Of a stretch of 38,332 nt of DNA, positions 1,174 through 38,332 are shown in pieces. Made by a program: the position numbers and the translations under genes. Location of the stretch: the UHGV virus genome UHGV-1370146; one strand, 5' to 3'. The DNA comes from a virus. The notes below the pieces were generated by a model. It was not told the DNA's origin and made no database searches. It saw only the letters and a program-made list of their open reading frames with translations. The first letter of the stretch is position 1. Each line of letters starts with the position of its first letter.

Positions 1174-3777
1174 TTAATGTAAGTCATAGGTGAAACTACC
1201 GTTTACCCACAAGTTCCTTACACCCCAATCTAATCCAACAATAATATCTCCGGCTCCTCCGCTATTAACCTTACCAAAAACATCAACAGTAGCATAGGAT
1301 GCCCCATTAGACGTTCTCACCGTACATGAGTGCCAGCTGTTATATAGTGGGGTGGCCCATGCTGGTAAAATCATAATTCTCTTATTTTTATCATTTACTC
1401 CACCAGAAAGTGTAAAAGTGACTCTTGCAACCCCCTGTGAAACTTCTTCCACAAATGGTTTTCTCAGAAGTCCGCCAGAGTTATAAATGAAACCATTGTC
1501 CAAACTTAATTCACTCCATCGCAAATCACCGCTACGACTGTCGGTTGTAATAATGTCGACACCTTTATCTTTCAAAGGTTGAAACGCTTCGTCTGGTGCT
1601 GTCCAAACATTGAATTGTAGTCCATTATCATGGAATTTTTGAGCCATTTCTTTTGTGACTGTTGCATGGTTGTATGCTACATCAGCTGACATTCTCAATC
1701 TGATACATTCATTCAATTCTGTTTGAGTAACAGAATTTAAGACCCAAGCAAGTTCAATTTCGTTGGACATATTTCTAAGTCGTTCTAATATTGATTTATC
1801 AAATGAAATTACGACACATCCATCATTAAGCACCTTATAATGGTTTAGAATAGCCATGAATCCTTGAAGTTGAGCATCAGTGTACGCATTTGATTTTATT
1901 TCAATGAAAGGTACTCCACCAGCAATTTTACAGCATTCAATAGCTTCTTCTAAGGATGGTACAACCTTTTCTGAGTCGCTCAGGACGCTTACATTCGCAC
2001 CTGAATCAATTCTCAACGCTCTGATTTGAGCATAGGTAAATGAATCTACTCGACCTGTTCCATTCGTCATACGGTCAACAGTATCATCATGCATGACAAC
2101 CCAACGACTATCTTTAGTGATCCCGATGTCAAACTCTATAAAACGATGGCGAGAAACCGACTTAAGAGCTAACAATGAATTTTCTGGGTAATCAGCATTA
2201 TTTCCCCTGTGTGCACAATAGTTAACGTTATTGCTTAAATACTTAGATCTATTAATTACTTGTTTTTCATAATAACTTTTCACGCCAGCTGGTGTGACGA
2301 ATTTATTTGACGCTGATCCATTCGCGGCTTCATCAACCGTGGCTGTGGCATAGTTGTCAATATTACCTAAATCTAGGTTTGTTTTATTGAAATCACTTAC
2401 CTTGACCAATTGAGTATCTGCATCGGCTTTTGTCAAAAATGTTTGATTTGTTTCTGTTTTTGAATAAGCACCGGCTTGACTAGCTGTCACACTGTGTGGG
2501 TTATCTTTCCTCATGACAAAATCTTGAAAATCTTTTAAATTAGCCTTCAACGCCAAATCGTTCTCATTAGCAAAACCTGCTTGATTCAAAACAGTCAATG
2601 GATTCAACGATACTTTTAGCTGAACACCAATATAATCTACATTGATATTTGCAGCAGTGACGCCATTAGAGCTATCACAATAAACAAGTACGTTAATAAA
2701 ACCTTTTGAGTCAATGAAATTACTGTCATTGACTTCAACCGTGAAATCTGTGAACTCTGTTGCATCTCCTTGAATCTTAGTCGTATAGGTATCTGTAGAT
2801 TCAAGATACAATGCAACTTTTAAGTTTTTGTTGTTCGGTGAAGATGCTTTTGCTCGGATCGTCAATGAAATAGAGATAAAGTTATCCTTCATATATTTGA
2901 CTTTCTCAGCTAAAGTCATCCCTTCAAAAATCCTCGGCGCTAATTGTTCAATAGCTTTGACTGTATCAGCTTTATCTAAAAGTTGAGGAATTACACTTCC
3001 TTGGCTTGATCCAATCGAAACACCAGAATCATCACGACCTACCAACTTATTATAATTTTCTTGGCTAATTTCAGTCCAAGTTGCACTTGGTTTTTTCAGG
3101 CTCGTTGCTGTGTAATCCGTATAAGCTGAGTGAGGATTAACTAACGTATTACCTGCAACTTTACCAGCAAAATCCATCATCTTAGGGACATCAACTGGAC
3201 CGGAAAATAATTTGATCGCATCTGCATTCGTTAATCGAATCCCAAAGTCAGCAGCTAATCTGTTTTGCAGGGTATTTTGCTTAACACCTTGTGTATCAGT
3301 ACGTGCTTGGACAATTTCGGGATTGCTATCACCTGATTCCGCTACTAAATCGTCAAACTCATTTCGCAACGCATCAAATTCCTGTTTATTTTGATTTGCA
3401 CGGCCTACGGCTTGATTAGATGTGTCCACCGCGGTTTTTGAATCTGAGATAGCTTGGTCTGCTTTTTTATTTGCTTCTGTTCCGGCAGTTTCTGCAATAT
3501 TTTTTGCTTCTTGTCCGGCAGCTTCGGCAATGTTCGTTGCCTCAGTCGCCGCATTTGATGCCGTTTGTTTTGCTTCTGCTGCCGCTGTATCTGCTGTTGT
3601 CTTTGCAGCCTGTCCGGCATCGGTAGCAATCTTCTTAGCATCTTGAATTCCTTGATTAAGATCAACAGCGAATTGATCAACTTTTTTTGATGAAGTATTT
3701 GATAAATCAATAGCCTGATTTATTTTTACACGTCCGGCATTCAGTGTGTCATTTTCTTGAATATGTTCTACTGCCAA
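1174..3777 (-). CDS. Tail fibre / host-specificity protein with an N-terminal Ala/Thr/Glu-rich imperfect tandem repeat region and a C-terminal glycerophosphodiester phosphodiesterase (GDPD) domain.
   Basis: The C-terminal half contains CAHRGNNADYPENSLLA...FIEFDIGITKDSRWVVMHDDTVDRMTNGTG, which are GDPD catalytic motifs. The N-terminus has repeats of the form AAKTTADTAAAEAK/ATEATNIAEAAGQEAKNIAETAGTEANKKAD. TTG start with a G-rich RBS. Confidence 0.8.
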   Translation of the reverse strand: MAVEHIQENDTLNAGRVKINQAIDLSNTSSKKVDQFAVDLNQGIQDAKKIATDAGQAAKTTADTAAAEAKQTASNAATEATNIAEAAGQEAKNIAETAGTEANKKADQAISDSKTAVDTSNQAVGRANQNKQEFDALRNEFDDLVAESGDSNPEIVQARTDTQGVKQNTLQNRLAADFGIRLTNADAIKLFSGPVDVPKMMDFAGKVAGNTLVNPHSAYTDYTATSLKKPSATWTEISQENYNKLVGRDDSGVSIGSSQGSVIPQLLDKADTVKAIEQLAPRIFEGMTLAEKVKYMKDNFISISLTIRAKASSPNNKNLKVALYLESTDTYTTKIQGDATEFTDFTVEVNDSNFIDSKGFINVLVYCDSSNGVTAANINVDYIGVQLKVSLNPLTVLNQAGFANENDLALKANLKDFQDFVMRKDNPHSVTASQAGAYSKTETNQTFLTKADADTQLVKVSDFNKTNLDLGNIDNYATATVDEAANGSASNKFVTPAGVKSYYEKQVINRSKYLSNNVNYCAHRGNNADYPENSLLALKSVSRHRFIEFDIGITKDSRWVVMHDDTVDRMTNGTGRVDSFTYAQIRALRIDSGANVSVLSDSEKVVPSLEEAIECCKIAGGVPFIEIKSNAYTDAQLQGFMAILNHYKVLNDGCVVISFDKSILERLRNMSNEIELAWVLNSVTQTELNECIRLRMSADVAYNHATVTKEMAQKFHDNGLQFNVWTAPDEAFQPLKDKGVDIITTDSRSGDLRWSELSLDNGFIYNSGGLLRKPFVEEVSQGVARVTFTLSGGVNDKNKRIMILPAWATPLYNSWHSCTVRTSNGASYATVDVFGKVNSGGAGDIIVGLDWGVRNLWVNGSFTYDLH

Positions 3778-6184: not shown

Positions 6185-7123
6185 CTACAAATACCTATTC
6201 GAATATTTAATTGTTAATCTAAAATCGCCATCTCTTCCTGAAACATAAAGTGGTTCTGAAGGATAGATATAAAAGTCATTCATTGGCCGTATCATTGGCC
6301 TATCGTTTTTAGTAATATTGAAAGTTTGAGTATCGATCTCAATTGTTGCATTATCGAAGTCGCCTAAATTGATCGTGTCACTTCGAGTTCGAATCTGAAC
6401 ATCACGTCCCATCCCCTCAATCGTGATTGAAGGTTTCACTTTAAGCCCCTCAACTGTTGGATATATCTCAAATGGCTGGGCCTCTTTCCCTGTATCGCCC
6501 ATTAAGTATCCTTGGTGCTGCCAAGTAATAATATCCGAACCCCAGTAAGCCCCACCTTCGAAACGCACTGCCATATTTACTGCACCAGAACCAGTATTGC
6601 CTAAAAGATAGTTTGCTTGGAATGTAATGATCTCGGAACCCCACATGACACTAGTGGCATCTGATTTGGTGTATTTATAAGGATCTCCACATTTTATTGT
6701 GAAACTACTTATACACCAGTTCACTCCTGGTTCAACTTTGTCTATCGTTGCTTTTGTTCCGCTGAATAGCATTTCTGGTTCATCGTTAAACCAAATCTGA
6801 ACCTCCTTTTCAGTAAACAAAGCAACATTTAATTTATTAAATTTATCTCGAAATGAAGCATCGTCTTCAGCTTTTAAATAATACTGAACGATGATTTCTC
6901 TTGCGGGAATTCTGTTGTAAACATGACGTTCACCATCACGTATACCAAGCTGATAATATTCGTTGTTTGTTTCAAAAAGTTCCCGACCCTGAACATTTAA
7001 TGTTCGATAGCCGGGAATAATATCTTCTAAAAATTTACCCCCGATATTCATTGCTTCGGTGGGCATTCCTTCTAAAGGAGAGGTCAATTGAAGTTCCATT
7101 AATGGAGAAATATTTTCTATCAC
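6185..7123 (-). CDS. Distal tail protein (Dit)
   Basis: 312 aa, positioned between TMP and Tal. Overlaps the TMP stop (ATGA). Confidence 0.7.
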   Translation of the reverse strand: MIENISPLMELQLTSPLEGMPTEAMNIGGKFLEDIIPGYRTLNVQGRELFETNNEYYQLGIRDGERHVYNRIPAREIIVQYYLKAEDDASFRDKFNKLNVALFTEKEVQIWFNDEPEMLFSGTKATIDKVEPGVNWCISSFTIKCGDPYKYTKSDATSVMWGSEIITFQANYLLGNTGSGAVNMAVRFEGGAYWGSDIITWQHQGYLMGDTGKEAQPFEIYPTVEGLKVKPSITIEGMGRDVQIRTRSDTINLGDFDNATIEIDTQTFNITKNDRPMIRPMNDFYIYPSEPLYVSGRDGDFRLTIKYSNRYL

Positions 7124-21242: not shown

Positions 21243-21330
21243 GCAAATTCCTCCTCAATTGGGTCGGTTAGTATTGCTTATGGTTTCTATATCTCTTTTT
21301 TGTTATTATTAATAAAAAAAGGATGTGTTA

Positions 21331-22149
21331 ATGTTGGATCCTATTATTACTAGCTCTCTAATGACTTTTGGAGCCGGCTTTGCTACTGCAGCTTTTTCAA
21401 AAGCTAAAGGTCCTGGTCAGGCCTTAGACGATGCTATGGCCCTAGTTGGATTTGATAAGCTGCATGAAGTAGCAGAAAAGAAACGCGCTAAGAGAGAACT
21501 AAACATGCAACGTTATAAAGACTCAATTGCTCAAAAGATTGTTGCCATTCCTGATGGAAATTTAAAAGAACCTCCACTTTCGATAGTTGGCCCAGCTCTT
21601 GAAGCATCTAAATATTACATTGAAGAAGAAGAGCTTAGAGAAATGTTCGCTAGGTTGATTGCTTCTTCCATGGATAAAGCGAAAGAAACTATCACCCATA
21701 CTTCATATGTCGAGATAATAAAGCAATTAACCCCTTTAGACGGAGATAACCTGAAATTAATTAACCAAAACAAAGGCGAAGAGCTTATTTCTAGACTTAT
21801 TGTAAATTTCGACAACGAAGGATTTAAAATTGCTAGAACGAATCTTTTTTTAGCAAATGAAAATTGTAATGACCAACTTATACTTAGCGCTTCATTAGAT
21901 AATTTAAATCGATTAGGATTAGTCACATTGGATTATTCTAGGTATCGTAAAATCGATAATATTTATGATCAATTCAAACTAACCAAGGAGTATGAAGATC
22001 TAAAGCATACAATTGAATCACAAAACCAGCATTTAGAAAATAATGAACTTCCGAGTGAAAATTATCCATTTTTATCTGGTCCTGAAATAGGCATGGGTTT
22101 AGTCTCCATCACTTCGTTCGGAGAGAACTTTTGCGCTACTTGTCTTTAG
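21331..22149 (+). CDS. Opposite-strand accessory protein, possibly Abi-alpha (DUF4393)-like abortive-infection family
   Basis: It is the only long + strand gene inside a minus-strand operon. The start is ATG at 21331 with AGGA 8 nt upstream (the track's GTG at 21325 is less likely). The segment IVGPALEASKYYIEEEELREMFARLIASSMDKAKETITHTSYVEIIKQLTPLDGDNL resembles, from memory, the conserved core of the Abi-alpha family. Confidence 0.65.
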   Translation: MLDPIITSSLMTFGAGFATAAFSKAKGPGQALDDAMALVGFDKLHEVAEKKRAKRELNMQRYKDSIAQKIVAIPDGNLKEPPLSIVGPALEASKYYIEEEELREMFARLIASSMDKAKETITHTSYVEIIKQLTPLDGDNLKLINQNKGEELISRLIVNFDNEGFKIARTNLFLANENCNDQLILSASLDNLNRLGLVTLDYSRYRKIDNIYDQFKLTKEYEDLKHTIESQNQHLENNELPSENYPFLSGPEIGMGLVSITSFGENFCATCL

Positions 22150-29424: not shown

Positions 29425-31377
29425 CTATACCTCTACTTTCAGTTTTTCGTCTTCAGTTACTTGTAGCTCAATCATTTGTCCTTCGATCGGTTGCAGGGTG
29501 TTAACTGACTCGGCGTTATCAACGAATACCGGCATAGTAATCCCAAGTTCGCGCGACAGCGTGCGAATGATATCTAAATCGCAATTGATTCGCGCTCCGT
29601 TGTTTAAGCCACTGCTGTACTCGATACCGTTGTATGTCGCTTCGCACATTTCTTTGATACCTTCATTTTTCTGAACATCGAATAGCTTCCACTTCACGAT
29701 CGAGAACAGTTCGTTGATTGATTCCTCAATCCGCTTCACTTTGCGGCGTGTGAATTCCTCGATGAGCCACAATTGTTTTTCGACTAATTGATTTTGATTC
29801 TTCAAGTCTTTGTCCTCGGTTTTTAACGTAGATAAACGATCATCGTAGCTTTTAACCGTTTCGAATTTCTGCAATTCTTGATTCAAACCAGCTAAAATCT
29901 GTTTGTCAGATTGAATGTCTGCAGATAATTTATCGACTTCTGCATTGGTATCTTTAGCAGCGGCGAGTTCCATCGCCTTTTCTAGTTGAGTGTTTTCAGC
30001 GATAATATTGCGATAGATCTGCGAGTCTTCGAAAACGCCCTGCTTGCTTTTTTGAAAAATCAGGTCGTTATTGATTTCATCTAAACGAGAATCAGAAGCT
30101 TGAAGTTGGTTTCTTTTCTCCGTGATTTCCTTTTGAAGAGGAATGATTTCAGCTTCTAATTTGTCCGCATCTTGTTTAGTGGCTTTGCCGATCTCAACAT
30201 TTTTCTCTAAACGATTGGCTTTATTCTTATTAAATTCAGAAACCATGTTTTCAATCTCGTTTGACGGTAAATTTTGACCACAAGTAGGGCATGTCTTTTG
30301 ATGCTCGTCAAAATTCAAAGCTTTGATTTCCTTGTATTTAGTTAGATGATCCTGTAGAAACTCTCGCTTTTCTTTCAGCGCCTCTTGCATCCGATACTCT
30401 TTGCTTTCTAAAGTCGATAAATCGGTTCGGAGCGAATTGACTAAGGCCTGCTGACTGTTAAAATCTTCTTGTAAGCTGGACGTTGCTGCAAAAACGTTCG
30501 TTTGAAATTTAGTCTTTTCATCGACTAGCTTGGCTCGAAGATCAGCCTGTTTCTGTTTCAGTCCGTTTAATTCATGATTTACTGTTCCGGCTTTGGCATC
30601 AATCAACCAAGATTCCTTTTCAGCGATCAAAGCGGCCATTTCATCGATATCTTTTTGAACAGCTTCTTTCGTCCGCCCCTCAATATTCAAGCTTGCTTTC
30701 ATGTCCGTGACTTCTTGAATCCGTGCTGGCATGCCGTCGATGTCTCGTTTGATTTCTTTCTTACGACCAGCAAGGATTTTCTTCATTTCGTCAATGCTAT
30801 GATCTCCGATGAAATCATTGATTTCTTTGAGTTGATCGTCTTCTTTGATGATCTGTTCATCTGTTAAATCAGTAAGATCAATCAACCGCTCGCGACGCTC
30901 TTTCCAGTTCAAAGACATAAAAAAAGACGAATTCGACAACATTTGCAGCGTCGGTTCCCCACCTAATTTTTCAAGATAAGCTTTCCAATCTTTCTCTTTG
31001 ACCGGCACAGCATCTATAAAGTATCTTGTGCTGTCACTACTACGAGTCTTTTCAAGCTCGCCTTTTTTAGCGGTCCATTTTTCTTCTTGGATTCGTTTGA
31101 GAACAGTCACTTTTCCATCGATGATCAATTCTGCTTCCACGGTAGGCTCTAAACCTAAAAGCTCTTGATTCTGCTTGTCTCGCGGTTTTGGGTTTAGCTT
31201 TGCTCCAGTGGAATCTTTTCCAAAGAATAGCCATTGAAGTCCATCTGCAAGGCTCGTTTTCCCTATTCCGTTCCGACCGCTTACTACCGCAGATGTGCCG
31301 TTCAATACGAGTTCAAAGTTTTCTAATCCTTTGAAATTCTTATAAGCAATCTTATTTATTGAAATCTCAGTCATCAA
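29425..31377 (-). CDS. SbcC/Rad50/SMC-like ATPase with a central coiled coil and a zinc hook
   Basis: N-terminal Walker A GRNGIGKTS. A long coiled coil contains CPTCGQ (CxxC hook) near its apex. The C-terminus has ...PVFVDNAES (Walker B / D-loop). Confidence 0.75.
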   Translation of the reverse strand: MMTEISINKIAYKNFKGLENFELVLNGTSAVVSGRNGIGKTSLADGLQWLFFGKDSTGAKLNPKPRDKQNQELLGLEPTVEAELIIDGKVTVLKRIQEEKWTAKKGELEKTRSSDSTRYFIDAVPVKEKDWKAYLEKLGGEPTLQMLSNSSFFMSLNWKERRERLIDLTDLTDEQIIKEDDQLKEINDFIGDHSIDEMKKILAGRKKEIKRDIDGMPARIQEVTDMKASLNIEGRTKEAVQKDIDEMAALIAEKESWLIDAKAGTVNHELNGLKQKQADLRAKLVDEKTKFQTNVFAATSSLQEDFNSQQALVNSLRTDLSTLESKEYRMQEALKEKREFLQDHLTKYKEIKALNFDEHQKTCPTCGQNLPSNEIENMVSEFNKNKANRLEKNVEIGKATKQDADKLEAEIIPLQKEITEKRNQLQASDSRLDEINNDLIFQKSKQGVFEDSQIYRNIIAENTQLEKAMELAAAKDTNAEVDKLSADIQSDKQILAGLNQELQKFETVKSYDDRLSTLKTEDKDLKNQNQLVEKQLWLIEEFTRRKVKRIEESINELFSIVKWKLFDVQKNEGIKEMCEATYNGIEYSSGLNNGARINCDLDIIRTLSRELGITMPVFVDNAESVNTLQPIEGQMIELQVTEDEKLKVEV

Positions 31378-33009: not shown

Positions 33010-33339
33010 GTGGATTGGTCCGTAATAATTACTTCTTTACTAACTGCTTGTGTTCCATCAGCTTTTGCTTATTTCACCGCTACCAAACAGTCACAAGCTA
33101 AGCTAAAGGAATTAGAATCAAATTTTAAAAACGAACTAGAAAAAATTGATAAGCAACACGAACACCAAATTGAATTACTAAACGTGCAATTCAATCAAGA
33201 AAATAAGAAAAATGAAAATGAGATAGTAAATAATCTTGCTACTGGCGTGATTAAGGGTGATTATGACCTAGAATCTCTTATCAAATTAGCCAATCAGGCT
33301 AAATCATTTTCAAATTCTAGCGACAAGACTAAGAGTTAA
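33010..33339 (+). CDS. Opposite-strand small membrane-anchored coiled-coil protein (moron-like)
   Basis: GTG start with a good RBS, an N-terminal TM helix and then a coiled coil. It has its own promoter and terminator inside the leftward early operon. Confidence 0.55.
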   Translation: MDWSVIITSLLTACVPSAFAYFTATKQSQAKLKELESNFKNELEKIDKQHEHQIELLNVQFNQENKKNENEIVNNLATGVIKGDYDLESLIKLANQAKSFSNSSDKTKS

Positions 33340-33748: not shown

Positions 33749-33777
33749 TTGACATGCGTATACAAATATTCTACAAT
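33749..33777 (+). promoter_or_regulatory. Consensus sigma-A promoter TTGACA-17-TACAAT, rightward toward the repressor operon
   Basis: Exact hexamers at 33749..33754 and 33772..33777. Confidence 0.6.
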
Positions 33778-33970: not shown

Positions 33971-34348
33971 GTGGAGTTGTATGAACGAATAAAAGAACTC
34001 GCAGCTAATAAAAAAATATCGATTAGACAGCTCGAGGAAACGCTCAAATTTGGTAATGGCACAATCAACCGCTGGAGGACTAACACTCCAGGAATTGATA
34101 AAATCCAAAAAGTCGCTGATCATTTTGACGTCTCTGTAGATTACCTTTTAGGCAGAACTGATGATCCAAAACTAAATACCGGCAATGTCGAAAATGAAGA
34201 TGATTATGAACAAGAACTTATTATGATGTTCCGTAAAGGAGAAAAAGAAGTCGCTCCTGAAAAACGCGATCTTTACAGAAAACAAACAAAGGATTTGATG
34301 AGCTTCATCTCTAAAACTATGAAAGAACTAGATGAGGAAAATGAATAA
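33971..34348 (+). CDS. XRE-family CI-like repressor (ImmR-like)
   Basis: N-terminal HTH (KKISIRQLEETLKFGNGTINRWRTNTPGIDKIQKVADHFDVSVDYLLG). GTG start. It sits upstream of the ImmA-like gene. Confidence 0.8.
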   Translation: MELYERIKELAANKKISIRQLEETLKFGNGTINRWRTNTPGIDKIQKVADHFDVSVDYLLGRTDDPKLNTGNVENEDDYEQELIMMFRKGEKEVAPEKRDLYRKQTKDLMSFISKTMKELDEENE

Positions 34349-34364
34349 CTTGGGAGTGTAGTCG

Positions 34365-35039
34365 TTGGAAGATTTAAAAGGCAACCGATTGACCTTGAGC
34401 AATTTATTAGTAAACCAGTTTTTGTTGAAGAAAAATATTAAACCTGAAGAATATGTATTTTCCGAGTTCGTTTCGGATTTCATAAAAACGAACGGAATAA
34501 AAGTTGTCACTCAAATACCAGCTATTGATGAAGATTTCTTTCTTGGGGTTACAGTTAGAAGTAAGAAAAGTATTTGCATATTCTTGAACCCTAACGTGTA
34601 TAAACGCCGAGCAAATTTTAGTTCATGCCACGAAATCGCTCATTGTCTATTTGATATGAACATGAAAAAGAAAACTCAGCAATTTTTTAATATTGACAAC
34701 AACCCTTCTTTTTATGCTGATGATGATTGGCAACTTGAATTGTTGGCAAATAGTTCCGCTGGGATAATTATGCTCCCAGATATTAAATTAGTTAACTATA
34801 TGAAATCAAACAAATCTTTCTACTTAATTGCGGATGAATGTCAGATGAGTAAATCAGCTTTATACAATCGCTTGTTAGATTTCGGCGTATACGGTTGCGG
34901 AATGAGCGAAGCAACCGCCATACAAGCAGTAAGGCTGTTGCAAGATACAGGTGATCGTTCTCTATTCCGAATGTTTCTAAATGGAGTACATTCTAATCGT
35001 GAAAAACAAATAATTTACGACTACGAGAACTCCATATAA
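34365..35039 (+). CDS. ImmA/IrrE-family HEXXH zinc metalloprotease (anti-repressor protease)
   Basis: The motif HEIAHCLFD. It is co-directional with and immediately downstream of the repressor. Confidence 0.8.
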   Translation: MEDLKGNRLTLSNLLVNQFLLKKNIKPEEYVFSEFVSDFIKTNGIKVVTQIPAIDEDFFLGVTVRSKKSICIFLNPNVYKRRANFSSCHEIAHCLFDMNMKKKTQQFFNIDNNPSFYADDDWQLELLANSSAGIIMLPDIKLVNYMKSNKSFYLIADECQMSKSALYNRLLDFGVYGCGMSEATAIQAVRLLQDTGDRSLFRMFLNGVHSNREKQIIYDYENSI

Positions 35040-35106
35040 AAAAGCCCGTGCTAGCACACGGACTAAACCCATTTCTGAGCTACATAACAAAAATATTATA
35101 TCAGAA

Positions 35107-35940
35107 ATGAGGAGCTGTAAAGTGAAAAAAGTTGTTCGAATATTATCTCTTTTAATTGGTTTTTTTCTAGTATTTATGGGTTTGTTTGGTGGAATTATAG
35201 CTAGTGGTGATTTTATTACTGGGGCTATCGTTACTATCATAGGCATTCTTTTCATGCATTTTGGGCATAAAATGAAAAAACCTACTGAATCCCAATCAAT
35301 AGAGCACATCAATAGTCAATCTCTTACTAATAACAAAAATACAGTTACTGCTGAAACTGAATCTCAAAAAGATGGAATGAACCAACCAGTTCCTGCCTCA
35401 AGTCATATAAAAAAAGAGGAATTTACCTCTAATGCTGAAACCGAAAAAAAGGAACTAACTTTTTTCGAAAAGAAAGTTGCAAATACTGTTTATTATGAAA
35501 CATTTAAAACAGTTGGTTCGACCTTTAGAAAGAAAAGTGATTTGAATAATGCTATTAAGTATATTGCAGAAGATTACTTTGGTGAATTTTATGACGGAAT
35601 GAGCAATAAAGAAATTGCTGAAGATATGGGACGTGTGTACAAATATCAAGATTTTTACACTAATAATGTTTCACTCATACCTGAACCTGAAAACGAATAT
35701 GATAAAAATGCTATCAAAGTATTAGTTAGTGATTTTTGTATTGGTTATATCCCCAAAAATATTAACAAGCAAATTCTCTCTTTTGTTAATGATGATACCT
35801 TAGATCGTGATTTGACAGTCGAAATTATTGGAGGACCTTATAAGGAATTAGATTTCATCGAAGATAAGGTTACTACAACAAATGATAATTACGGATTCGA
35901 ACTAACTACTCGATTTTATAAGAACACAGAAAACAAATAA
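35107..35940 (+). CDS. Membrane-anchored protein with two N-terminal TM helices and a cytoplasmic C-terminal HIRAN-like domain; candidate superinfection-exclusion / lysogenic-conversion gene
   Basis: TM1 ILSLLIGFFLVFMGLFGGII and TM2 ITGAIVTIIGILFMHFG with positive residues on both flanks. The C-terminus ...EPENEYDKNAIKVLVSDFCIGYIPKNINKQILSFVNDD... matches the HIRAN signature. A GTG at 35122 with RBS GAGGAG is an alternative start. Confidence 0.6.
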   Translation: MRSCKVKKVVRILSLLIGFFLVFMGLFGGIIASGDFITGAIVTIIGILFMHFGHKMKKPTESQSIEHINSQSLTNNKNTVTAETESQKDGMNQPVPASSHIKKEEFTSNAETEKKELTFFEKKVANTVYYETFKTVGSTFRKKSDLNNAIKYIAEDYFGEFYDGMSNKEIAEDMGRVYKYQDFYTNNVSLIPEPENEYDKNAIKVLVSDFCIGYIPKNINKQILSFVNDDTLDRDLTVEIIGGPYKELDFIEDKVTTTNDNYGFELTTRFYKNTENK

Positions 35941-36058
35941 AAAATACACGTCGCTCTCCCCTGCAAAGTTTGAACGACGTGATCACATAAATAAAACCTA
36001 CAGCAATAGGCTTACTTAACTGTGCCTATTGTATCAAAGAAAGCGAGTTGGTTCAATT

Positions 36059-37207
36059 ATGGCTGGAGTAAAAGAGTATCGAAAAAAAGACGGTACAATT
36101 AATTATGAGTTTCAAGTGTATGCTGGCATTAATCCGATAACTGGAAAGCAAATCGTAACCAGACGTCGTGGGTTTGCTACAAGTAAGGAAGCAGAATTGG
36201 AATTGGCAAAAATAAATTTAGCTATTGCCGAAGGAACGTTTAAAGTTCAAGAGCCTCCCCGGACTTTTAAAGAGATTGCTGAGATCTGGCTACCCAACTA
36301 TAAGTCAACTGTTGAAGAAGTCACTTATACTGGTACCCTTTCCATTCTAAAGCTACACGTATATCCTGATTTTGGAGATATAAAAGTAGACAAAATTGAT
36401 GTCACCTACTGCCAAAAAATGGTAAATAAATGGGCTGATGAACAACCATCATCTTTCAAAAAATTCCGCAACTATACAAGTAAGGTTTTAGATTATGCTG
36501 TAAATATCGGGTTGATTGATGACAACCCAATGAACAAAGTATTAATCCCCCGCGTTAAGAAAGAAAAGCGAGAGACTCCCTTTTACACTAAAGATGAACT
36601 GAAGCATTTTTTAGAGTTAGCAAAACAATACGATCCAACTAAAATTTATACCTTCTTTCGCCTACTCTCCTATTCTGGCATGCGTAAAGGTGAAGCTTAT
36701 GCGCTGAATTGGGATGATATTGATTTTGAAAAGAATCAAATCGACATTAATAAAAGCTTGGCTCGCGGGGAAAACAAAACAATCTATATTAGCGCTCCGA
36801 AAAATAAAAGTAGTATCCGAAAAATTTCAATGGACAAAGAGACAATGGGTATCTTAAAACGCTGGCAGCTGGAACAAAGGAAACAGCTTTTTGCTTTAGG
36901 ACATCCAATAAAAAAAGAAAAGCAAGAATTATTTTCTACTGACGAAAATGATCTTTATCAACCTACTGTCGATGCCCATTGGAAGAAAGGAATCTACAGA
37001 TTAGACCCGGAATTCAAAAAGATCAATACTCATGGATTTAGACATACTCATGCATCCCTACTATTTGAAGCTGGCGCATCCATTAAAGAGGTCCAAGACC
37101 GTTTGGGACATGCGGATATTGCTACAACGATGAACATTTATGCTCATGTTACTGAAGCAAAAAGAGATGAAACGGCAGATAAATTCTTCCGGTATTTAAA
37201 CGAGTAG
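36059..37207 (+). CDS. int: Tyrosine recombinase / phage integrase
   Basis: C-terminal catalytic motifs ...HGFRHTHASLL... and ...NIYAHV. The N-terminus MAGVKEYRKKDGTINYEF is integrase-like. The track's TTG at 36029 has no RBS. Confidence 0.9.
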   Translation: MAGVKEYRKKDGTINYEFQVYAGINPITGKQIVTRRRGFATSKEAELELAKINLAIAEGTFKVQEPPRTFKEIAEIWLPNYKSTVEEVTYTGTLSILKLHVYPDFGDIKVDKIDVTYCQKMVNKWADEQPSSFKKFRNYTSKVLDYAVNIGLIDDNPMNKVLIPRVKKEKRETPFYTKDELKHFLELAKQYDPTKIYTFFRLLSYSGMRKGEAYALNWDDIDFEKNQIDINKSLARGENKTIYISAPKNKSSIRKISMDKETMGILKRWQLEQRKQLFALGHPIKKEKQELFSTDENDLYQPTVDAHWKKGIYRLDPEFKKINTHGFRHTHASLLFEAGASIKEVQDRLGHADIATTMNIYAHVTEAKRDETADKFFRYLNE

Positions 37208-37381
37208 ACCAATTTTAAATAACGAAATAGAAAGATTATTTGGCTTATATTTTGGCTAGGTTGTTAATATTTTTCTGAAGCATTTAAAGAACCATCACGG
37301 TTAAAAGTTCTAATTTCATAGTATCTACATTCTATGAAGGATTTAAAAAATAACTAATCCTCTACTCTGAATCAGGTAAGT

Positions 37382-37406
37382 GTAGGTTCGAGCCCTACTA
37401 TCCCAA
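37382..37406 (+). other. tRNA 3'-end-like fragment (T-arm GTAGG-TTCGAGC-CCTAC plus 3' acceptor strand); candidate attR core
   Basis: The canonical GTTCGAG T-loop sits in a 5-bp stem. No complementary 5' acceptor strand or anticodon arm was found upstream, so this is not a full tRNA. A terminator follows. Confidence 0.3.
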
Positions 37407-37425
37407 TATATGTAATCATTGATAT

Positions 37426-37459
37426 GACAGTCTTCCCGAGTGGTGGGACTGTCTTTTTT
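37426..37459 (+). terminator. Rho-independent terminator (GACAGTC...GACTGTC followed by TTTTTT)
   Basis: A 7-bp stem extended by two G-U wobble pairs, then T6. Confidence 0.55.
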
Positions 37460-37698
37460 AGGACTAAAAGTTTTAATGGCTAAGAAATTGGCTAAGTTAT
37501 AATTGAATTTTATGTATATAAATAACAAAGAACCATTCATTTCAGAATTAATAATAAAATGTTTTAACTAATAATTATCAAGAAAAAAAGAAGTTAGCTT
37601 ATGTTCAAGCCGAGGCCCATAGCAAGCTCAGCAACAACAAAACAAATCTGAGAACCAGAGACTTGCAGAACAAGATAAAGCTAATGGATACTAAAAAA

Positions 37699-37737
37699 AG
37701 CTCCACTCACCCCGATTAGGAATGAGTGGAGCTTTTA
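37699..37737 (-). terminator. Bidirectional rho-independent terminator after the cell-wall hydrolase gene
   Basis: An 11-bp stem AGCTCCACTCA/TGAGTGGAGCT flanked by A7 and T4. Confidence 0.7.
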
Positions 37738-37738
37738 A

Positions 37739-38332
37739 CTAATAATTCAATTGTTGGCCAGCATAAATTAAGTTGGGATTACTCAACCCATTCTTAGTTG
37801 CTAACGCTTGAAATGACGTTCCCAACTTAGCTGCAATTCCAGATAATGTTTCACCGTAACTAACAGTGTAAGTACGACTAGTAGAAACTACTTCACTAAC
37901 CTTTAGTTGTTGACCAGTATAGATATAATTCGGGTTGCTTAGACCGTTCAACGTGGCTAAATTTTGATAGGTCGTGCTGTACTTAGTCGCGATACCACTA
38001 AGCGTTTCGCCTGATTGAACGACATGAATGCTCACAGAAGGTGCCGGACCTGGATTCGTTGTCTGCAAAATTTCAACATCCTTGCGATTGATCCAGCTCA
38101 TGACTCCACCTAGCAACACTTTCTCACCGCTAACTTGTTGGACAGTATAGCTGTTGCCTTTGATCCATTGCGGGATCGCTTGACCTGTTGACCAATTTTT
38201 TGCAGAGAAATTAACTTTGACGGTGTAACCCGCTTTGATTTCTTTTTTAGGCGTTTCGTTTGCGTTTTGACCCTCATCGATTGCTGGCGTAGAAGTATCA
38301 GGATCGACAGTTACTTTTCCGTCATCATCTTT
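37739..38332 (-). CDS. Host cell-wall hydrolase-type protein, C-terminal part: SH3b-like domain plus two LysM domains (the N-terminus lies beyond the window end)
   Basis: I translated the frame by hand and it is open from 38332 to TAG at 37739. The product is ...AGYTVKVNFSAKNWSTGQAIPQWIKGNSYTVQQVSGEKVLLGGVMSWINRKDVEIL (SH3b-like), followed by two LysM repeats (VVQSGETLSGIATKY...NGLSNPNYIYTGQQL and YTVSYGETLSGIAAKL...NGLSNPNLIYAGQQL). Confidence 0.75.
   Translation of the reverse strand, partial: KDDDGKVTVDPDTSTPAIDEGQNANETPKKEIKAGYTVKVNFSAKNWSTGQAIPQWIKGNSYTVQQVSGEKVLLGGVMSWINRKDVEILQTTNPGPAPSVSIHVVQSGETLSGIATKYSTTYQNLATLNGLSNPNYIYTGQQLKVSEVVSTSRTYTVSYGETLSGIAAKLGTSFQALATKNGLSNPNLIYAGQQLNY

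Follow-up and report, generated by a model that had tools for sequence, protein, structure and literature searches.

What does a membrane-anchored protein with a DNA-end-binding type of domain do for a temperate phage that encodes it between its immunity genes and its integrase? We addressed this question in UHGV virus genome UHGV-1370146, the 38,332-nucleotide stretch of DNA that we refer to as the window, where a 277-amino-acid (aa) open reading frame (ORF) is read at 35107..35940 on the plus strand, between genes for an ImmA-type metallopeptidase (immA) and a tyrosine integrase (int). An original prediction, made from the letters of the DNA, had described the product as a membrane-tethered HIRAN-domain protein in the position typical of superinfection exclusion (Sie) genes and had proposed that it captures the ends of incoming phage DNA. 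Our analysis confirms the domain and places the protein in the ThaL-type family that is already named in pneumococcal prophages. The reading we favour, with a probability of about 40%, is that a solo protein expressed in the lysogen captures phage DNA by its 3′ ends as it comes in, on the cytoplasmic side of the membrane.

We first define the gene product. The predicted ORF is present, but its start at ATG 35107 is less likely than GTG 35122, which probably is the true start and gives a thaL-like coding sequence of 272 aa (35122..35940, +). The GTG is favoured because a Shine-Dalgarno sequence seen in the DNA, AGGAG (35110..35114, +), lies seven bases ahead of it, because the closest homologues have MKK as their N-terminus, and because in L004, a relative with 63% identity, the ATG matching position 35107 of the window is out of frame with the gene. 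The predicted topology of the protein is unaffected by the choice between the two starts.

The C-terminal part is confirmed as a HIRAN domain, by sequence and by the fold of an AlphaFold2 model (built from a 15-sequence alignment; mean predicted local distance difference test score, pLDDT, 79), as had been predicted. It matches Pfam PF08797 (HIRAN) with 31.6 bits and E=1.4e-7, above the gathering cut-off of 24.7, and the homologues score 32-62 bits. A family profile compared with the PDB matched HLTF HIRAN chains (E=2.7e-9). Consistent with this, a Foldseek search with the model returned HLTF HIRAN or Lactiplantibacillus plantarum lp_0118 in 16 of the 16 top matches, each with a probability of 1.00, while the runners-up after these HIRAN structures were Cas12c with a probability of at most 0.77. 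The closest known HIRAN domains are those of human HLTF (4S0N, 4XZF, 5BNH and 6KCS), yeast Rad5 and lp_0118 (3K2Y), and the model shows their beta-barrel fold.

The domain is larger than the ~100 aa originally assigned to it. A well-defined alpha/beta module of ~150 aa is modelled at residues 114-267 (35461..35922, +) with a pLDDT of 86-97. Between its strand 1 (VGSTFR) and the EPxNxYDxNAIKV core (35665..35799, +), which contains EPENEYDKNAIKV and where the Pfam match lies, sits a family-specific helical insert of ~40 aa at residues ~138-175. Because this insert splits the core, PF08797 is aligned over profile positions 25-70 of 96 only. Compared with HLTF, Rad5 and lp_0118, the window protein has an added helical insert and no SNF2 motor or RING, and it is membrane-anchored and phage-encoded. 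Neither Pfam nor the fold search detected a nuclease domain in the thaL-like protein, NCBIfam gave no match to it, and the several PHROGs families that matched are all labelled as of unknown function.

We then asked whether the residues by which a HIRAN domain holds DNA are kept. In HLTF, D94 reads the 3′-OH, Y72 and Y93 clamp the final two bases, and the domain can open duplex ends (PMC5773155); the substitutions R71E, Y72A and Y93A abolish binding (PMC6511057). In the window protein, D194 (codon 35701-35703) aligns with D94, and the preceding Y193 with Y93. In the family alignment, the D94-equivalent Asp is found in 162 of 162 representatives, as are an Asn three residues ahead of it and an Ala three residues behind. 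The Y93-equivalent position is Y, H or F in 140 of the 162, and the Y72-equivalent, F135, which was assigned by motif order and not by superposed structure, is F, Y or H in 148 of 161. A further GG-x-Y-K motif is family-specific and almost invariant. Judged from this alignment, the machinery that holds a 3′ end appears intact, in line with the prediction of a DNA-end-binding type of HIRAN.

The N-terminal part is a predicted membrane anchor. Hydropathy reveals a single 44-residue hydrophobic run at residues 9-52 with a turn, ASGD, dividing two helices, and a charge count gives five K/R ahead of the run and three K directly behind it. AlphaFold2 places helices at residues 2-27 and 31-50 (272-aa numbering). 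Together these data delineate a predicted two-helix transmembrane (TM) hairpin (35140..35265, +) composed of ILSLLIGFFLVFMGLFGGII, the turn ASGD and FITGAIVTIIGILFMHFG, with K/R on both sides, and they agree with the positive N-terminus, two TM helices and second positive patch that had been noted originally. Since the two hairpin ends should lie inside under the positive-inside rule, an N-in/C-in topology is predicted, with the HIRAN module and everything downstream in the cytoplasm, where the original prediction had also placed it. Anchor and module are joined by a low-complexity, predicted disordered linker of ~60 aa (35272..35460, +), whose pLDDT falls below 50 at residues 56-88 and 95-103 (272-aa numbering). 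Among homologues, this linker is variable in length and cannot be aligned.

The original prediction had taken this architecture to be undescribed, and here it does not hold. Kwun et al. named ThaL, a protein with TM and HIRAN parts, in the lysogeny module of the pneumococcal prophage phiRMV8 (PMC12637031), so that architecture and location were already known. Likewise, GenBank records of Streptococcus and Staphylococcus phages annotate HIRAN proteins beside int, and PHROGs contains matching families. By sequence, the window protein is a divergent new member of this ThaL-type family. Like ThaL, it unites TM segments and HIRAN in one polypeptide encoded between repressor and integrase, and its residues ~125-270 can be aligned with prophage proteins from pneumococcus, S. 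mitis and S. oralis, with identities of 31-43% and E values from 4e-13 to 4e-22. Among the tblastn matches were IPP28 (42%, E=1e-20) and IPP42 (31%, E=4e-13), the latter with an N-terminal 2-TM hairpin followed by HIRAN. The window protein differs in being distant in sequence, where homology was measured on the pneumococcal relatives and phiRMV8 ThaL was compared by description, and in the switch that accompanies its gene, which is ImmR/ImmA in the window and a C1-type repressor in phiRMV8. In pneumococcal prophages, the slot holds thaL, szaL or spaL alternatively (PMC12637031), as accessory cargo does. In the full-text literature searched for HIRAN together with superinfection exclusion, anti-phage activity or lysogeny, no function was assigned to a phage HIRAN protein.

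Membrane anchors recur in the family but differ in form. Among 162 sampled representatives, TM segments are predicted at the N-terminus in 127, mostly as a two-helix span, at the C-terminus in 3, at both ends in 1 and nowhere in 31, so that 81% carry them. The hairpin itself is C-terminal in S. oralis phage Javan348 and N-terminal in pneumococcal IPP42. Because the type and position of the anchor vary and the linker is long and disordered, we read the membrane part as a tether and not as an effector. This bears directly on an abortive-infection (Abi) explanation, in which HIRAN would sense free 3′ ends of phage DNA, whether replicating or incoming, and oligomerise on binding, and the hairpins would permeabilise the membrane such that the lysogen dies before phage release. 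The layout of a sensor domain with a small TM part does recall known TM-effector defence proteins, the gene is a partnerless single gene carried as prophage cargo, and the phage encodes an Abi_alpha gene as well (21325-22149). Interchangeable anchors, however, are more readily explained by tethering than by a specific effector that forms pores, and we consider this explanation unlikely.

The relatives in which no TM segment is predicted are of several kinds. By eye, a number of them (P0008, P0013, P0014, P0017, P0042, P0075, P0081, P0127 and others) start with a sequence like MG[LF]F..[LI]FKK, perhaps a short helix that directs them to the membrane. Further ones have either a different N-terminal region or CxxC pairs, the latter suggestive of a zinc ribbon. 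In P0017, a metagenomic protein of 335 aa, the MGLF start is followed by a tandem pair of HIRAN stretches; the module can therefore be duplicated.

In 60 non-redundant family loci, an XRE repressor lies upstream in 45 (on the same strand in 44), and a recombinase lies downstream on the same strand in 47, comprising 39 tyrosine integrases and 8 serine recombinases; ImmA is present in 6. The gene also sits in the lysogeny module near int in all three of the phage records inspected. The predicted placement between immA and int therefore stands, with the neighbours in the window identified by Pfam and PHROGs and the repressor-integrase slot being the rule family-wide. Clustering of the neighbours in the 60 loci revealed no conserved partner gene beyond repressor, recombinase, cro-like helix-turn-helix (HTH) gene, antirepressor and ImmA, which shows the thaL-like gene to be a single-gene system without a dedicated partner.

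Such a position could also mean that the protein serves the phage itself in its life cycle, tethering the phage genome or its replication intermediates to the membrane, or sensing ends or damage on behalf of the ImmA/ImmR switch, integration or excision. The gene is co-oriented with the repressor and recombinase genes and lies between them, eukaryotic HIRAN domains work at stalled forks, and ImmA-type switches react to DNA-damage signals. An integral component of switch or integration would, however, be expected to co-vary with these, and the gene instead occurs with unrelated switches (ImmR/ImmA, C1/LexA-like and plain XRE) and with both recombinase classes. It is also absent from many related phages, whose slot is filled by other genes, and its low GC content suggests cargo. 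We regard a life-cycle role as rather improbable. The GC content of the thaL-like gene is 30.4%, compared with 38.1% for the genome and the lowest among the genes tested, which suggests acquired cargo.

We further determined how widely the family is distributed. When 1.84 billion cluster representatives (50% identity clusters) were searched exhaustively with HMMER, 412 proteins passed a threshold of E<=1e-30 and 1490 one of E<=1e-10. The size of the family became visible through this search, whereas a word-indexed protein search found 16 relatives only. Against GenBank phages, tblastn retrieved 64 records (36 Streptococcus, 23 Staphylococcus, 3 Bacillus and 2 Lactobacillus), with matches restricted to the C-terminal module and covering at most 53% of the protein in any phage record. 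Full-module relatives in named genomes all belong to Bacillota, both Bacilli and Clostridia, and within the Clostridia are frequent in Lachnospiraceae, Oscillospiraceae, Finegoldia and others. Among named genomes, that of Atopobacter phocae encodes the nearest relative of the protein (39%).

This host range can be set against a third explanation, namely that the protein guards against transforming or conjugative DNA, with 3′-end capture preventing 'chromosomal curing' of the prophage or the entry of competing elements. Transforming DNA enters Gram-positive cells 3′ end first, and HIRAN binds 3′ ends of single-stranded DNA, so the module could capture transforming single strands emerging from the uptake channel or, in conjugation, the 3′ end through which a transferred strand is closed. 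Prophages of naturally competent streptococci commonly carry homologues, and a conflict between prophage and transformation is documented in pneumococcus (PMC12637031). Yet full-module relatives are frequent in Clostridia, where competence is not known, and the thaL-carrying phiRMV8 lysogen is described as naturally transformable, with deletion of the prophage by transformation about as efficient as acquisition of a point mutation (PMC12637031, which includes no thaL-specific mutant). Because phiRMV8 thaL lysogens are both transformable and cured by transformation, we have down-weighted this explanation and hold it to be very improbable.

We thus return to capture of incoming 3′ ends and outline how it could work. 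In the lysogen, transcription of the gene would accompany that of the repressor gene, immA and int, and might also start from a weak promoter of its own. The hairpin and the flexible tether of ~60 residues would hold the 3′-end-recognising HIRAN module at the inner face of the membrane, and no dedicated partner protein would be needed. When a superinfecting phage threads its linear DNA into the cell, the leading end would surface amid concentrated tethered HIRAN modules, and the pocket would cap the 3′ end, with the Asp on the 3′-OH and the two aromatics gripping the last two bases. Capped ends would be hindered in annealing, ligation and priming, and the injected genome would remain linear and open to host exonucleases. 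Resident DNA would be spared for want of free ends at the membrane, such that self and non-self would be told apart by location and not by sequence. Many Gram-positive cos phages have 3′-protruding cohesive ends, which would be ideal HIRAN ligands. Extended to the whole family, ThaL-type proteins would constitute a widespread, one-protein, nuclease-free Sie system of Bacillota prophages that caps injected 3′ ends and blocks circularisation or replication, a generalisation that we offer tentatively and with considerable doubt.

Precedents exist for both halves of this mechanism. Restriction of HIV-1 by HLTF needs 3′-end binding by its HIRAN domain (PMC6511057), which gives a eukaryotic antiviral precedent. 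The second precedent is SNIPE (Saxton et al., bioRxiv 10.1101/2025.11.03.685801), a nuclease bound to the membrane that cleaves phage DNA while it is being injected, from which it is clear that proteins localised there and targeting DNA can act at this stage. The window protein resembles SNIPE in that a DNA-targeting domain would be held at the membrane and would meet only entering DNA. In contrast, SNIPE has a nuclease and contacts the tape-measure protein and a host permease, while the window protein has no nuclease and no homology between the two was detected.

A second comparison is with the classical Sie proteins, such as lactococcal Sie2009 and Ltp of S. thermophilus phage TP-J34, which are small, membrane-associated and encoded between repressor and integrase. 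The window protein is likewise small, predicted to be membrane-associated, located in the repressor-integrase slot and presumably made in the lysogen. Proteins of the Sie2009/Ltp type are not known to have a recognised DNA-binding domain, and Ltp acts outside the membrane. The functional domain of the window protein, in contrast, is predicted to be cytoplasmic and of DNA-end-binding type.

Another known HIRAN system was considered and rejected. The sole PADLOC match of the thaL-like protein is PDC-M03B (E=3.5e-7), over residues 186-230 only, that is, the HIRAN core. Membership in PDC-M03 (HipA + HIRAN, 'HipI'), a candidate defence or toxin-antitoxin pair, was rejected since no HipA kinase adjoins the gene, its neighbours being ImmA and Int; nor was a kinase family found among the conserved neighbours in the 60 loci. 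In addition, the definition of PDC-M03 includes neither the TM anchor nor the extended module.

Several points weigh against capture of incoming ends. DNA-end binding by the window protein and any protective effect are predictions from sequence, as is true of function throughout the family, and we infer its expression in the lysogen from gene order only. A consensus promoter scan called no strong promoter for the thaL-like gene. No homology to a characterised Sie family was found, as Pfam, PHROGs, NCBIfam and PADLOC returned only HIRAN or families of unknown function. Tethering is not obligatory, given that ~19% of the representatives (31/162) have no predicted TM segment and that in Staphylococcus phage P954 another N-terminal domain replaces the TM anchor. 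As the protein has no nuclease or effector domain, end-capping would have to suffice or a host factor be recruited. Finally, HIRAN needs a few unpaired 3′ nucleotides, so that it should capture blunt pac ends less well, even though the HLTF domain can open a duplex end.

The neighbourhood of the gene in the window is that of a lysogeny operon. Its first gene encodes an XRE/ImmR-type repressor (33971..34348, +; HTH_3, HTH_19, HTH_26; phrog_8), followed by the ImmA-type M78 metallopeptidase (34365..35039, +; PF06114 E=1.3e-6; phrog_1516 E=5e-67), and downstream of the thaL-like gene lies the tyrosine integrase (36029..37207, +; PF00589, PF14659, PF14657; phrog_1 E=1.6e-84). The ImmR/ImmA pair (33971-35039, +) also matches PADLOC capH and capP (E=3.8e-9 and 1.1e-10), a regulator pair that controls some defence operons. 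The promoter scan found a promoter-like TTGACA-17-TACAAT at 33749-33777 (+), ahead of the repressor gene, and a divergent promoter-like site at 33912-33885 (-); the two mark the genetic switch. Between immA and the thaL-like gene lies a G+C-rich hairpin with a 9-bp stem (35043..35064), terminator-like on the minus strand only. It is followed by two intergenic blocks, CATTTCTGAG and CAAAA(T)TATTATATCA (35070..35105, +), which comparison with L004 shows to be near-identical there (6945-6990) though the proteins are just 63% identical. These blocks may represent a weak promoter or operator of the thaL-like gene itself.

The window is a complete, circularly permuted genome of a 38.3-kb temperate phage, because joining its end to its start (37739-38332 + 1-~700, minus strand) gives an uninterrupted 432-aa endolysin ORF with a signal peptide, a muramidase-like domain and two LysM repeats. 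The attP site is expected in 37208-37738, between int and the endolysin gene, beside a strong terminator-like hairpin at 37696-37736. No tRNA genes were found in the window. The nearest terminase, from an Enterococcus phage, is 58.6% identical, and the host is a low-GC member of the Bacillota. When the lysogeny region was compared at the nucleotide level with GenBank phages, no match was obtained; therefore, the region has no close sequenced relative there.

Four other genes of the phage were noted. The Abi_alpha gene (PF14337, E=5.6e-48; 21325-22149, +) is on the strand opposite to its neighbours and is a second defence-like cargo gene. A 109-aa ORF at 33010-33339 (+), amid minus-strand early genes, encodes a hydrophobic helix at its N-terminus, followed by a charged tail that is probably a coiled coil; no family matched this ORF, which is possibly a further membrane cargo gene. 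An 867-aa protein of the tail region (1174-3777, -) carries a glycerophosphodiester phosphodiesterase (GDPD) domain, which suggests that the virion degrades teichoic acid. The replication/recombination module includes an SMC/Rad50-like ATPase of 650 aa with a zinc-hook signature (29425-31377, -).

Taken together, the mechanistic idea of the original prediction is reasonable while its claim of novelty was overstated, and the abundance of the family and the sharpness of the hypothesis merit attention. Genes that protect the lysogen are known to reside in the repressor-integrase slot of Gram-positive temperate phages, but few of them have a mechanism. The ThaL-type family is among the commonest occupants of this slot, including in prophages of S. 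pneumoniae and S. aureus, in phages of Bacillus and Lactobacillus and in numerous Clostridia of the gut. If capture of incoming 3′ ends proved true, it would be the first function assigned to a prokaryotic HIRAN domain and the first Sie mechanism to rest on the recognition of DNA ends. End recognition at the membrane would then be an added way for cells to distinguish incoming DNA from their own, and a eukaryotic domain that remodels forks and restricts HIV-1 would be linked to bacterial antiviral defence.
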